From Eledone cirrhosa (taxonomy: Eukaryota): a stretch of DNA of 64,000 nt. Where the stretch lies: positions 62,001 through 126,000 of the forward strand of contig CAXHJY010000547.1 in NCBI GenBank assembly GCA_964016885.1, read 5' to 3'. The position numbers and the translations under genes were made by a program. The notes below the pieces were generated by a model, which worked only from the letters and a program-made list of their open reading frames with translations, was not told where the DNA came from and did not search any database. Positions 1,895 through 58,100 of the stretch are shown here, piece after piece; position 1 is the stretch's first letter; every line of letters starts with the position of its first letter.

Positions 1895-1976
1895 GCTCTG
1901 CTGATGAATGAAATTCCAACCGTGACCATCTCCACTGAAAGTTTTCATGAAATAGTCTTTTAAGACTATACAGAGC
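1895..1976 (+). ncRNA. Type I hammerhead ribozyme motif
   Basis: gctctg-CTGATGA-atgaaa..tttcat-GAAA-tagtctt tt aagacta-TA-cagagc. Helices I, II and III all pair; predicted cleavage after AUA at 1970. Confidence 0.8.
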
Positions 1977-2494
1977 ATTTGATGTTATTCCAAATTGAAG
2001 GATAAGTGTTTCAAACTTTATTTTATCATGAGTTAAAGGTCTATAGATTTTTCCCTGGATTTTACTAAATTCTGTGGATGAATTTATATCCTGATACTCT
2101 TTTGAGATGAGTTTGAGTTATTTTTCCTAAATCTTTCGTTAACTACTTTTCCCATCTTGACGTTATAGTCGCATATATGTTATAGAATGCCGTTAGCTTC
2201 TTGCTAAAACAATCTCTATACCTCTCATTTATATTTATACTCGGATTCTTTTCCTAGAGTGCTTAAACTAACTGTGATAATTATTGCTATTTTGCTGAAC
2301 TCCTTTGTAGAGTTTTTTTTCAGAATGTATTTGACTGCTATTTCTTGTAAATAAACATTCACTTCCATCCTGACGTCACTAGCCCCGTTTTTTCCCCATG
2401 TGCTTTTTCATAAATACACATGAAGGCGAACTAGCCAGTTTTAGAATTCCCTTTTTCGGATTATATTACTGTGAGAGCCCTGGTTTTCTGTTGA

Positions 2495-2576
2495 GCTCTG
2501 CTGATGAATGAAATTCCAACCGTGACCATCTCCACTGAAAGTTTTCATGAAATAGTCTTTTAAGACTATACAGAGC
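2495..2576 (+). ncRNA. Type I hammerhead ribozyme motif (second copy)
   Basis: Identical to 1895-1976, 600 bp downstream. Confidence 0.8.
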
Positions 2577-2914
2577 ATTTGATGTTATTCCAAATTGAAG
2601 GATAAGTGTTTCAAACTTTATTTTATCATGAGTTAAAGGTCTATAGATTTTTTCCCTGGATTTTACTAAATTCTGTGGATGAATTTATATCCTGATTCTC
2701 TTTTGAGATGAGTTTGAGTTATTTTTCCTAAATCTTTCGTTAACTACTTTTCCCATCTTGACGTTATAGTTGCATATATGTTATAGAATGCCGTTAGCTT
2801 CTTGCTAAAACAATCTCTATACCTCTCATTTATATATATATATATATATATATATATATATATATATATATATATATATATGTATATATATATATATGTA
2901 TATATATATATATG

Positions 2915-3195
2915 AACTTAGGGAAATTAACAAAGAGAAGACAAGACAATGAAAACAAGGCAAAATGAAAAACAATTTCTAATGGGAAACCTTGACTATA
3001 TTAGAGAGGCAGGGCCCAATGGCTGAGCTCTTTCCTTTTCAACAGATAGTTCCTGAGTCAAGATTTCCCCTTTAAAAAATTGTCTTTCATTTTGCCTTGT
3101 TTTAGTTCATTGTCATTTCCCAATTCCCAAGTCTGGAATTAGCTGTAGAAACAGCAAGAGCTCAGCCATTGGGCTCTGACTCTTTCTAATATATA
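2915..3195. mobile_element. TA-flanked short element with interleaved inverted repeats
   Basis: A (~2945-2998) pairs with A' (~3056-3115); B (~2998-3053) pairs with B' (~3135-3193). Confidence 0.6.
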
Positions 3196-53409: not shown

Positions 53410-53812
53410 CAAGTTTGTTGACTTGGCTGCTATTTCTAGCATGTCAGAAGTGTTACCTTCTTTAGTTGACTTGGCTGCTATTTCTAGCATGTTAGCTACG
53501 ATAGTTGACTTGGCTGCTTTTTCTAGCATGTTAGTTACGTTAGTTGACGTGGCTGCTATTTCTAGCATGTCAGAAGTGTTAGCTACGTTAGTTGACTTGG
53601 CTGCTATTTCTAGCATGTTAGCTACGTTAGTTGACTTGGATACTATTTCTAACATGTTAGTTACGTTAGTTGACCTGGCTGCTATTTCTAGCATGTCAGA
53701 AGTGTTACCTTCGTTTGTTGACGTGGCTGCTATTTCTAGCATATTAGCTACGTTAGTTGAGGTGGCTGCTATTTCTAGCATGTCAGAAGTGTTAGCTAAG
53801 TTCGTTGACTTC
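53410..53812. repeat. 39/48-bp minisatellite
   Basis: gttgacttggctgctatttctagcatg.. variants. Confidence 0.93.
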
Positions 53813-55098
53813 AACTGTTAGCTGTTCCATATGTTTATGTTTTATACATAACAATTGAGATATGTTACCTAAGTCAGTCCCTGCCCCCCCCTCTCTGTGC
53901 GCGCGCTTCTGTCTGTCTATTTGTGGCTGTTGTCATTACTAATGTGTGTGTACACACACACACACACACACACACACATATATATATATATATATACATA
54001 CACACACACACATATATATATATATATACATACACACACACACACACACACACACACACACACACATATATATATATATATATATATATATATATATATA
54101 TATATACATACATACATACATACACACACATACATACAATTTTATATATATATATACACAGTAGTAATGTATGTATATATATAATATTGAAAAGAAGATC
54201 AGACTTAATTATATTATTCTTACGAGGTCGATAAAATAAAGTACCAGTAATGCACTGGGATAATTGTCGGCATTGTGCCAAAAGTAGAAATAATTATATT
54301 TTACTTAACGCACGTCTCTCTCTCTCTCTCTCTCTCTCTCTCTCTCTCTCTCTCTCTCTCTCTCTCTCTCTCTCTCTCTCTCTCTCTCTCTCTCTCTCTC
54401 TCTCTGTGTGTGTGTGCGAAATTCTTTCCTTACTCACATTTCGACCAGGTTTGATGGTCTTTATTCTCTCTCGTCCACGATTTCAGAGACTTGACTTCTT
54501 CTTCCTCACTTTTCGTTGCATTACCATCTTTGATTGTTTACTGTCTCGCTCGTTCCCCATATTTATGTGTCCCAACGACTTTCTTTAGCCGTTGCTCGCA
54601 CCAACCGGAGGTATATGGTCTTTAAAGCGATGAAATACCAATGAAGGTTGGAAGATCACTGATGAAGGACTAAATTTATTCATGGTGTTTCAGTACGTTT
54701 TCATCAGATAAAATATATATGAGATTGGATGTGCGACATACCGCTAAGGTACTTGAATCTTCAATTCCTGTAGTGGCATATATATATATATCTTATTTTT
54801 TATCATTTATTTTTTGGACCTGTTTAGCTTGATTTGGTTTTTGGCTTGGGTGGTTAATGCTTTCTTGACCACCTTTTCAGTTTTGTATGGCTTCTTAACA
54901 CATTGTTTAGCTCTGGTTTTTAACTATTGAGCACTTTGCCAGTATTATTTCTGATTTTTGCGTTTGGCTTCGCTTTTCCTGCCCGCCGAAAATGCGATTC
55001 TCGCTGAATCTTTATTTGTATATATATATATATCCGAAATAAATGTGATTGTTTCATGTGTTTATTTTAAATATATATATATATATATGTCAATCAAT

Positions 55099-55180
55099 TG
55101 CTTTTACCGACGGTTTCACCTTACAAAAGATTGGATATCCTAGGGATCTCCAATGGAAATGTTCGGATCATCAGAGAGCA
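55099..55180 (-). ncRNA. Hammerhead ribozyme motif with long helix II
   Basis: Reverse complement tgctct-CTGATGA-(~50 nt hairpin)-GAAA-ccgtcgg-TA-aaagca. Lies inside a TA-flanked segment 55090-55316. Confidence 0.68.
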
Positions 55181-58100
55181 TTTTCCTTTCCGAGGACAGA
55201 AGTCCCAAGAACGGCAAAATATATTGCCACCTGCCAGCTAGCACAGGATCGAATGAGGCCGTAAAGTATATATTTACAGGGGTACTTAGTACCTGTGGGG
55301 ATATTAATCTCCTTTTATATATATATAATTGTTTCTACTTTTGGCACAAAGCCAGCAAATCACCCAGTGCATTAGTGGTACTTTATTTTATCGATCCCGT
55401 CAGGATGAAAGGCAGTTAACCTAGGCGATATATATATAATGAAGGAAGTGTGGTAAGGAATTAGGTGGACAATAACGCACCAGAGTACTCGATACTTAGT
55501 GTAGTAGAGTGGGTAATAGGAAAATATTCAGGACCCCGACGGCAGAGCTCAAGCCGTTTCGACTAGTCCAGAAATAGCCGTCGAAACGGCTTGAGCTCTG
55601 CCGTTGGGGTCCTGAACCTTTATATATATATTGTCATGCTAGCTTGGAAAATAGACGTTAAACGATGACGATGATAATATATTCAATGTACTGTGTCGTT
55701 TGCTTTTTTATTTCTGTTTACTCCCCCCTCAATAATGTGTGGGTTTCTGCTGGATCAAAGATTAATGCCGTTTCATCTTTGTGTCTGTTTTCATATCGGA
55801 AAAGCAAATTCTGATGTATCGGCTGTAATTGCTGTCAGTTCTCTGTCTACTGTACCGACTCTATCACCCCTCAGATATTCTACTAACCACATAGAATCTC
55901 CCAGCTTTAACCAGAGCAGTCTAATTACTGGGGTGAAATCACTTTTAGGACGCCGCCCCTCCCCCCCCTCCTCGGTTAGACAACTTCACTTGTTTTTCCT
56001 AACAAATTATGTGCTAGGAAAGTTGTCAATCTTCCTCTCAACATTTGAATGTAGGAAAAGTTGAAGAACAAAGGAAAATGCCTGAGATTCTTCTTATTGT
56101 TAATTCTTTTATTACCATATTTCTAATGAAAAACACCGCCTATGATTTTTATTAGGGTTTAGTAATGAATGTCTTATTCACCTGCTGTTTGGAACATAAC
56201 TTAAAGGTTCTTACTTAAAATTATGATGGAATCTATTAAATATAAACACTTTAAAGTTTTGTATCGTTGGTGGTTTCATATAAAAGTTTAGTTTCGCTAA
56301 ACTCTCGCCTGCATAACTGGGTCTATTGCCGTGAAGATTAGGACGGACGTGTTCTCCCATATTTTATTAATGGCTTACTCAAGGTGCGTGATTATTTAAG
56401 GCTTACAGTATTGGGTTCGATTTCCACTGGTTTGTAATTCATCTTTCTTACTATTGATAACATTAATTGATCGGTTTATTGCCAACAATTATGACATTTA
56501 TTTCTAATGGCCGTATTTGTTGCTGAAAACACGTGGCTTAATGGTTACAGTGTTCACACACACACAATCGCGAGGTCGGCGATGTGGAGACTGGTATGTA
56601 TGGCCGACTGATGATAGTCTTCCACAAAATACCTTGTACTGGCTTGTACCTTGGTGAGGAATTGTCCAGGTGTAAACTCATGGTTAGTCCCGACGAATAG
56701 GGGCCTATTTTACTGAGGAAAGGGACAGTGTCGATGGCCCTTTTTGTGCCTTCATGACTGATGGGAGGATGTCGTACCTCAGATCGGGGACCCGACCAGA
56801 ATGTCTGTAACAGAGGGGACATAAAGATAGCCAGTGTCCAGTGGTTGGCTAAAGTCAACTAATAACAGTAACAGTGGGCATAGTTAAAAGCAGCCAAGGT
56901 CCCAGTGGTTAAACCAGCTGATAGATTATATCATCTAATTATCCACAGTGACAATCGTTAAAAACACCCAGGGGCCAGACAGTGGTGTCAAGCCATCTGT
57001 CATATCTACCACCTAAACACCCACAGGGTGGCCACCGTTAAAGACATCCAGGGGCCAGGCCGTGGTGTCAAGCCATCTGAGAGATTATATCTACCATCTA
57101 AACAACAATAGCAACCACCCACACACAAAACCACACATTCTATATATCACCATACTTACTTTACACGTTGCTACTAACATGAACTCTACATCAACCAAGT
57201 CTGCTATATTGAAGTGAAAGTATAACAGCCGATCCGATGTACCGGATGTTTTCATTAAACGATAGTAATTTTTTCTTTTACTTTCAATGTTTTTATTAAA
57301 TAACACACATATATATATATATATATATATATATATATATATATATATATATATATATATATAACGAAGGAAGTGTGGTAAGGAACCAGGTGGACCATAA
57401 CGCACCAGAGTACTCGATACTTTGGGTAGTAGAGTGGGTAATAGGAAAAGAGCCATGACTTCGACGGCTATTTCTGGACTCAAGAGAGGTCCTGACTCTT
57501 TTCTTATATATATATATATATAACATTACAAATTGTTCACAATTCTTTCAGAATAACATTACAAATATAATATCGTTGATAAACAAATATAAACAAATAT
57601 ACTAAATACAATTAGCTATTATGAGGAACCTTACCAAATTAAATGACCAGAACGAGAGAAAGAAGATAAGTGGTGTAAACTAAACCTGCCTTCAATTCCC
57701 CACCAAGTGTGACAATGGGCCACACATGAGTGATAAATCTGTAGTTATTAACAGCAGATATAAAGATCGTTGTATCCACGTTGTAATAAATGAAATTTAG
57801 TTGTTTCTGTAATTCAAGAAAGCCATGAAATGTTTTTACATCTATTATTGCCAGTTCCATTTTTAATACTACATGTTAATAGTTGAACAATCAAAAAGAA
57901 ATCGTGATTGATTTTAACCCATTAATTTAGAATGTTTTGTTTTGTTTAAACTTTTGTATACAATCCTTTGTTTGTAGTGTACTCTTGGGTCCCAAATAAT
58001 AGGTGGATGGGTGGAATAAGGGCTATGGTGGTGGAAAATCGGTAATTTTTCTAGGTTGTCTACGTTGGCTTTTTAAAAACTAGAATTAGTTGTTTAGTTT

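Follow-up and report, generated by a model that had tools for sequence, protein, structure and literature searches.

The hammerhead ribozyme sites in a 64,000-nucleotide (nt) stretch of the Eledone cirrhosa genome (contig CAXHJY010000547.1, positions 62,001 to 126,000; hereafter the window) are almost certainly truncated ends of Hydra-type Penelope-like elements (PLEs) and of tandem retrozymes, lying in (TA)n. An initial annotation had noticed these ribozymes and proposed that many unrelated families share one architecture within TA microsatellites. In this study, we found that the architecture common to the families is not the ribozyme alone but a hairpin located at the ends of the copies. 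Judging from sequence comparison, we consider it likely that this conserved stem-bulge-stem hairpin binds the reverse transcriptase (RT) of the element and determines the starting point of copying. The ribozymes, the retrozymes and TA targeting were already known; this study adds the twin arrangement of the hairpins and their connection with Hydra elements and with the retrozyme. Neither Rfam nor the literature searched, the coverage of which excluded most subscription journals and Repbase reports, yielded a description of the hairpin, which is probably an undescribed cis signal in a known kind of element.

Ribozyme sites and their parent elements

Genomic copies of the window sequences, which we lettered by family, are 5'-truncated, often arranged head to head, and lie within TA, with one arm carrying an extra tail of 60-95 nt. 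These copies match the insertion pattern of PLEs given in the available text of Craig et al. (2021; PMC8557442), and were therefore read as PLE ends. Families B and C lead to intact elements, in which an open reading frame (ORF) follows the tail. The family B element is young and has an intact ORF of 714 amino acids (aa) comprising RT and, at the C-terminus, a GIY-YIG nuclease. Family C leads to a 3.53-kb tandem element with an intact RT and C-terminal GIY-YIG ORF of about 716 aa; the open frame as read has 784 aa. The family B protein has RWK, and DKT in place of DKG; the family C protein has RWR, a variant of RWK, and DKT. Both proteins show a CxCX5C linker as well as CxxC and CxH flanking E and N, as read by eye, and both have the motifs TLKDHK and WFNPP in common with published Hydra proteins. 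CCHH was judged absent from the two nucleases by eye, without alignment to CCHH-bearing nucleases. Moreover, both parents carry a canonical hammerhead near the 3' end, with a U3-A8 variant core in family C, and insert in (TA)n, two features already reported for Hydra-clade PLEs in the available text of Craig et al. (2021). On these motifs, we assign the parents of families B and C to the Hydra clade. An assignment to Neptune or Nematis was also tried and rejected, as the CX2-5CxxC linker and CCHH nuclease of those groups were not found and the Hydra motifs fit instead.

A Pfam search on six ORF fragments returned nothing relevant, and a homologue search gave 1428 proteins, nearly all unnamed, the homologues carrying PF26215/PF28514 and, once, PF01541. 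No parent ORF was traced for families D, E, H, I, N and K (the last 73% like B), nor for J and L; at one locus, an F-type hammerhead lies 734 nt after a Hydra-like nuclease match. PLE nucleases of other, CCHH-bearing types occur in the same genome (loci L028, L029, L191, L198 and L230), none of them tied to a tail hairpin. The young family B element (L183-L186) carries a second, decayed hammerhead copy 300-430 nt past the stop codon, and its 2-kb 3' untranslated region is largely TA/TG microsatellite. The complete ribozyme of family C, parent of the window sites at 10983, 51522, 55583 and 57508, was located at L225:4210-4300; it combines the rare U3-A8 pair with a long helix II, a 5-bp helix I and a GUC site. 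A search for it with the pattern CUGANGA had returned junction artefacts only, the true core being the U3-A8 variant. This variant has reportedly been seen before.

Twelve families were searched in the 3.0-Gb genome and gave 33 to 2676 candidates each (1275, 2044, 2676, 2420, 861, 1858, 1729, 33, 1637, 747, 199 and 2006); these are first-look candidates, not copy numbers, of which the best 40 were scored and 12-20 loci fetched per family. A query with an RT fragment gave 36,918 candidates. The large radiation of TA-targeting hammerhead retroelements that had been suggested is thus real, with 12 families and thousands of candidates. It is, however, of an already-described kind, since Hydra hammerheads and (TA)n targeting (Craig et al., 2021) and non-LTR (long terminal repeat) retrozymes (Cervera and de la Pena, 2020; PMC7229834) are covered in the available texts, and most sites in the window are short, dead remnants rather than elements in themselves. 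The 1901/2501 family, probably joined by that of 55174, is the only tandem retrozyme among them.

A hairpin at the copy ends

The hairpin was found by comparing the tails of otherwise unrelated families. It is a motif of 25-40 nt with a 4-bp outer stem (RYUC with GARY), a 2-nt bulge on the 3' side that begins with U, a variable inner stem and loop, and then RCY; the loop measures from 3 to about 60 nt. The window holds 10 strict matches, against 0.24 +- 0.55 in 100 shuffles and none in the reversed sequence, a count that is partly circular because the descriptor was derived from window families. Among the fetched loci, the hairpin occurs in 177 distinct contexts that form 20 clusters, many of them bystander families. 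Across 20 family sequences, six of the eight pairs change on both sides, and in seven of eight examples the hairpin is the predicted minimum-energy fold.

Each hairpin begins 0-6 nt after a fixed copy end. In the leader of an autonomous element the order is hammerhead, end site 1, hairpin 1, about 60-80 nt, end site 2, hairpin 2 and start codon, so that the optional tail of PLE copies is the stretch between the two end sites, with the hairpins about 65 nt apart. In family B, hairpin 1 closely follows the tail-less end, and a long-looped hairpin 2, itself followed by the start codon, closely follows the tail end; of 82 arms, 71 stop at one or other of these sites. For family C, the predicted second hairpin was found 3 nt past the tail end in most of the 100 matches listed (of 562 pattern matches), and in family G a degenerate hairpin follows the second end. 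The two arms of a head-to-head insertion mostly end at different sites. Among 96 head-to-head pairs, 81 join site 1 with site 2, three are 1/1, four are 2/2 and eight have an unplaced end; in loci not fetched with the query of the family concerned, one of each site is used in 36 of 44 pairs. A search for a hairpin after the end of family F gave chance matches only. The hairpin of family N sits about 85 nt from its TA end, and no complete hammerhead was found within 200 nt upstream in 12 loci of this family. A weak covariance-model match to the hairpin (E 0.03) at 33352-33389 on the reverse strand of the window is possibly the tail of another family.

The opposite ends of the short arms are informative as well. 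In family C, the starts of 76 of 92 such arms cluster at reference positions 580-599, a stretch of 20 nt in loop II, and no arm extends to the 5' core at 544; 21 of 33 bystander arms likewise begin there. This stretch contains TCATTT, which we take to be initiator-like, and for this reason we infer that the pile-up marks the 5' end of the messenger RNA (mRNA), the alternative being a strong RT stop. A similar pile-up is seen in family D (32 of 46 arm starts, a figure partly biased by the query), and the starts are more scattered in B, F, G and H. In family C tandems with internal deletions (L205, L206, L209 and L212), the junctions lead from differing ORF or leader positions to one and the same position in loop II, the pattern that template jumping at a fixed RNA 5' end should produce.

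The hairpin in distant relatives

The arrangement was then sought outside this genome. An RT alignment fetched 78 metagenome loci, most of them 38-48% identical, of which 50 were taken as starting near the N-terminus and 36, forming 33 clusters, had at least 140 nt upstream. With a descriptor of slightly wider loop limits, 18 of the 36 leaders contain two hairpins, spaced 59-92 nt apart, and 10 contain one; the controls gave 0/36 on the reverse strand and 0/36 inside the ORFs. The outer stem and the next three bases are near-invariant (44 of 46 outside hairpins), and hairpin 2 ends 12-63 nt ahead of the ORF. In agreement with the pattern described above, 11 of 18 ends of second leader copies that stop inside the contig, found among 40 loci examined, lie 0-6 nt before a hairpin, against 1.3 expected. 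In addition, the hairpin was recognised by eye in three of the six Hydra consensus sequences consulted in File S7 of Craig et al. (2021), in one of them twice at the very start; a variant is present in a fourth, and two have none.

The tandem retrozyme

By the usage of Cervera and de la Pena (2020), as far as their text was available, the element whose cores lie at 1901 and 2501 is a non-LTR retrozyme. Its family (2044 genomic candidates) forms arrays of 1.1-12.8 units of about 630 nt, with a longest stop-to-stop frame of 83 aa, 33% GC and a folding z of -3.5; the intact ribozyme recurs without any change in 45 of 63 whole units. The hairpin aside, it has no blastn similarity to the PLE families compared. 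The 5' ends of the arrays vary. At the other end, 23 of 27 arms stop at unit position 341-346 and run into TA, with the hairpin starting at 346 and the ribozyme cut site at 77; the arms come from 26 loci picked among the top-scoring arrays, and the two arrays observed to end differently are among them. In those two (L148 and L149), the arrays end at a shared unit position, 542, with no hairpin after it, and several 5' ends also lie at 536-548.

Units differ by a mean of 0.6% within arrays (57 pairs) versus 1.1% between arrays (171 pairs). This likeness fits a circular template and equally a uniform linear source, and does not decide between them. At L041-L043 (C3:53894610-53897521), a point variant alternates between successive units, suggesting dimer duplication or a dimeric template. 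Contigs of four runs of unknown kind cover the retrozyme, which says nothing on transcription. Family G, with its core at 55174, is probably a second retrozyme, and a 470-nt tandem was seen at one fetched locus.

Hammerhead motifs and TA tracts in the window

A structural scan of the window found seven complete type I hammerheads, at 1901, 2501, 24290, 36697(-), 49710(-), 49847 and 55174(-), where complete means a mismatch-free core and three helices. None was found in the reversed window or in any of 40 local dinucleotide shuffles, which upholds the expectation that the motif would exceed its frequency in shuffled sequence; when one core mismatch is tolerated, there are eight, against a shuffle mean of 0.7 (max 3). 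Eleven cores had been listed initially as complete or near-complete. Seven of these are the complete ones, and the other four are decayed or cut copies: G12 is altered at 10697(-), C3 is altered and helix I broken at 40586, two core changes are present at 41794, and the copy at 46542 is severed at C3. Intact cores of these families are present in other genomic copies. The density of complete ribozymes is 1 per 9 kb; the figure of one motif per 3-4 kb given earlier includes halves and both arms of single insertions.

All eight 3' halves listed are present in the sequence. A complete ribozyme was located in other genomic copies for the half at 3365, and elsewhere also for those at 10983, 51522, 55583 and 57508, whose parent is missed by a CUGANGA scan because its core reads UUGAGAA. 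No complete 5' half was seen for 24580 and 33826 (12 loci each), nor for 49365 in the genomic copies examined. Helix III is short and palindromic in nine of 11 hammerhead-bearing sequence groups, as had been stated; the 1901/2501 family and the 10983 family have a full stem there. Minimal PLE hammerheads are said to cleave as dimers. The description of the families as unrelated holds for most of them, although blastn sorts the 15 family sequences into 12 groups and some are thus related. Rfam searches returned no hammerhead or other relevant family in the window and nothing relevant in five element loci, and a search of solved structures found none. The first pair of helix II is often mismatched (C.A, U.U or C.C), or A-U in place of G-C, for instance at 24297/24323, in the 55181 region, in family E and in many retrozyme units. 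At 54640-54780, two distinct hammerhead 5' halves are joined head to head (54659 on the forward and 54707 on the reverse strand); a half of the 54659 type also terminates at TA at 15917(-).

The association with TA that had been noted was borne out. A (TA)4 or longer tract lies within 10 nt of one end in 15 of 18 insertions, against a mean of 2.5 and a maximum of 11 in 5000 random placements, and tracts lie at both ends in nine of 18, against a mean of 0.4 and a maximum of 5; both enrichments are upper figures, because the ends were drawn by eye and partly from the TA tracts. Genomic copies concur: in the 51522 family, all 20 of the 20 tails continue into TA.

Other features of the window

The window is repeat-rich and full of microsatellites and minisatellites (the features studied are collected in Table 1). 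A very abundant repeat resembling a short interspersed nuclear element (SINE) often lies beside PLE fragments or TA tracts, at 51235-51430, 31185-31310, 41005-41109, 55317-55425 and other places. The segment 59910-61382 and the fragments 1-360, 1120-1640, 4064-4417 and 5174-5700 are presumably RT fragments of an RTE-like long interspersed nuclear element (LINE), judging from their motifs.

Table 1. Retrozyme and PLE-derived features of the window, with positions counted from its first letter (strand "." where the feature is not assigned to one).
Feature	Position	Strand	Details
Tandem retrozyme	1847..2830	+	1.6 units of 600 nt between TA tracts; cores 1901 and 2501; 8-bp helix III; AUA cut site after 1970 and 2570
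Retrozyme start-site hairpin	2239..2263	+	arrays stop about 4 nt before; 264 nt downstream of ribozyme cut site
Family H, head-to-head PLE ends	3195..3430	.	hammerhead 3' half 3365(+); tail hairpin 3245-3272(-)
Family F, minimal hammerhead	10588..10717	-	core 10697; helix III ACGU; G12 altered; single 3' end; neither tail nor hairpin seen
Family C, head-to-head leader fragments of 3.5-kb Hydra-type PLE	10831..11029	.	hairpin 1 at 10876-10902(-)
Family B, end of Hydra-type PLE with 714-aa ORF	24244..24445	+	short inverted arm; complete hammerhead core 24290; tail with mutated hairpin 1 (24371-24403)
Family J, hammerhead 3' half	24519..24711	-	helix III ACCGGU; genomic copies with two 3' ends, tail without matching hairpin
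Family K (73% like B), head-to-head ends	33516..33716	+	3' half at 33604; tail hairpin 33660-33683
Family L, 3' half	33765..33900	-	helix III ACGU; no clear hairpin
Family D-related (73%)	36500..36770	-	complete hammerhead core 36697; tail hairpin 36557-36585
Decayed F-related copy	40560..40698	+	core 40586
Family E, decayed hammerhead joined to inverted tail	41729..41861	.	core 41794(+); weak hairpin match 41767-41795(-)
Family E copy cut at core C3	46542..46612	+	does not adjoin TA
Family I, old head-to-head ends	49300..49470	+	3' half at 49365; tail hairpin decayed
Family D, two 173-nt head-to-head arms	49602..50046	.	complete hammerheads 49710(-) and 49847(+); tail on + arm only; hairpin 49952-49989
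Family E end, absent from first list	50047..50205	-	intact tail hairpin 50103-50125
Family C, head-to-head fragment	51452..51649	+	hairpin 1 at 51570-51596
Family N, TA-flanked end, absent from first list	54795..55018	+	hairpin 54910-54935; 2006 candidates in genome
Family G, complete hammerhead	55089..55315	-	core 55174; U.U at helix II base; likely second retrozyme, unit about 470-485 nt, two end sites
Family C, head-to-head fragment	55437..55622	.	hairpin 1 at 55484-55510(-)
Family C fragment	57363..57504	-	hairpin 1 at 57409-57435

Discussion

How the hairpin might work can be outlined from the position of the copy ends. The GIY-YIG nuclease would nick TA, the freed TA end would pair with the AU-rich bases just upstream of the hairpin, and RT would then copy toward the 5' end of the RNA. 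As a possibility that we hold only tentatively, the twin hairpins may dock a dimeric RT, each half of which would prime on one strand of the nicked TA repeat just upstream of its own hairpin, whereas a single copy of the hairpin may let circular retrozyme RNAs hijack the enzyme for rolling-circle insertion. With an RT on each of the two hairpins, priming would take place on opposite strands of the target, and a head-to-head copy with one tail would result once the two complementary DNAs (cDNAs) were joined. On an unextended mRNA, copying would run off the 5' end of the leader and leave short fragments; the family C fragments would be hammerhead 3' halves because that end falls inside the ribozyme. 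Full copies, like retrozyme arrays, would need tandem or ribozyme-circularised RNA. We propose that retrozymes are mobilised in trans because they carry the hairpin. In the available text of Frangieh et al. (2024; PMC11167929), a PLE of the Poseidon clade uses two internal RT starts in vitro that define the tail, its protein needs RNA 3' of the starts, both target strands are extended, and ribozyme cleavage is unnecessary.

The same ends could also arise if the motif were read in DNA, with the GIY-YIG nuclease recognising the cDNA or the donor locus, cutting a few bases upstream, trimming the copy and leaving the optional tail. Craig et al. (2021) attribute the tail to nuclease resolution in the available text, plasmid cutting by the Drosophila Penelope nuclease depends on the tail sequence (as cited in the accessible part of Frangieh et al., 2024), and the near-invariance of the outer stem and the three following bases would suit a nuclease site. 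We nevertheless regard this explanation as unlikely: the inner stem varies yet keeps pairing, G-U pairs of the sense strand become A-C in first-strand cDNA, a loop of 3 to about 60 nt would not be tolerable for a double-stranded site, and the anole starts are mapped as RT starts in the same source. The twin hairpins might instead act near the start codon in translation or RNA stability, for example if the protein bound them and so repressed its own synthesis, with copy ends set only by AU-rich pairing to nicked TA. The short distance from hairpin 2 to the ORF in the outside leaders, and AT-rich microhomology to TA at every fixed end, speak for such regulation. Yet the retrozyme has no ORF and its arrays still end at the hairpin, and the ends are confined to one or two points in RNAs that are AT-rich throughout, so that we consider this role improbable, more so than a nuclease site. 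Finally, many copies are near-perfect inverted repeats in TA and the family C fragments are nearly fixed in length, as would be the case if the short palindromes were DNA elements akin to miniature inverted-repeat transposable elements, or self-amplified satellites, with ribozymes and hairpins as passengers. Such an origin is largely refuted, and very little weight is left to it, by unequal arms, fold points that vary between copies and a tail on one arm only, and because intact RT elements end in these very sequences.

Several observations weigh against start-setting by the hairpin itself. The percentage of paired positions is true by construction, because the rows used for covariation were chosen as pairing matches; the stability of the hairpin is modest (z -0.01 to -2.5), and one of the eight examples folds without the bulge. 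No matching hairpin was seen in families J, which has two ends, and L, and no tail in F. In families D, H and E, no read-through copy was found, and searches for a second hairpin gave chance matches only. One family N arm ends about 16 nt ahead of its hairpin, and four of the 27 retrozyme arms end elsewhere, two of them at one second site without a hairpin. Outside this genome, eight of the 36 leaders have no strict match and seven of the 18 copy ends are not at a hairpin. No autonomous element with the sequence of the retrozyme turned up, no search having been aimed at one. In addition, the anole start sites lack complementarity to the DNA that is cut, and no conserved motif is named in the available text (Frangieh et al., 2024).

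If true, the twin-hairpin element would explain the optional tail, the one-tailed head-to-head copies and the thousands of leader-only "strong-stop" fragments. Template choice of PLEs, the one-sided tail and inverted copies, and the enzyme that mobilises animal retrozymes are questions stated as open in the accessible parts of the literature. A motif of 25-40 nt that is conserved across distant animals and predicts copy ends makes these questions open to direct mutagenesis with a young intact element. The hairpin also offers a sequence marker for the annotation of Hydra elements and of the non-coding elements that depend on them, and insertion tools based on target priming might use it as a portable start signal.

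In L2/CR1 LINEs and their SINEs and in hepatitis B virus, where it is known as epsilon, a short stem-loop with a bulge recruits RT, and non-autonomous partners borrow it. The LINE stem-loop lies upstream of the start and is copied, whereas the hairpin described here is found downstream of the start and is missing from the copy that begins there.

The elements themselves resemble the Hydra-clade PLEs of Craig et al. (2021) in the single RT and C-terminal GIY-YIG ORF, RWK, DKT, CxCX5C, the canonical hammerhead and (TA)n, and also in partial tandems, inverted 5' copies and the one-sided tail. That clade is presented in the available text as a small group of generally <3 kb, and the text names no hairpin; here, the units are 3.5 and about 4.3 kb and very abundant, with tails of 60-95 nt. 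The likeness extends to the anole Poseidon element PAc, in which, according to the available text, two internal RT starts downstream of the hammerhead bound the genomic tail, a dimer is predicted, and both strands are cut and extended (Frangieh et al., 2024; PMC11167929). PAc belongs to another clade, its starts fall within the ORF at an AC-rich stem-loop and have no homology to the target, and the source describes no motif that is conserved from family to family; in our elements, the starts precede two copies of one conserved leader hairpin, with TA microhomology.

Likewise, the tandem retrozyme agrees with the non-LTR retrozymes of Cervera and de la Pena (2020; PMC7229834) and of Li et al. 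(preprint 10.64898/2026.07.22.740005), as described in the parts of these sources consulted: they are non-coding, AT-rich tandems with one type I hammerhead per unit, and our unit of 600-635 nt falls inside the 51-972 nt range of the preprint. Both sources propose PLEs as the partner that mobilises retrozymes. In the same parts, they leave the recognition signal and the priming site open, whereas here the arrays have a fixed internal 3' end at the hairpin of autonomous Hydra elements.

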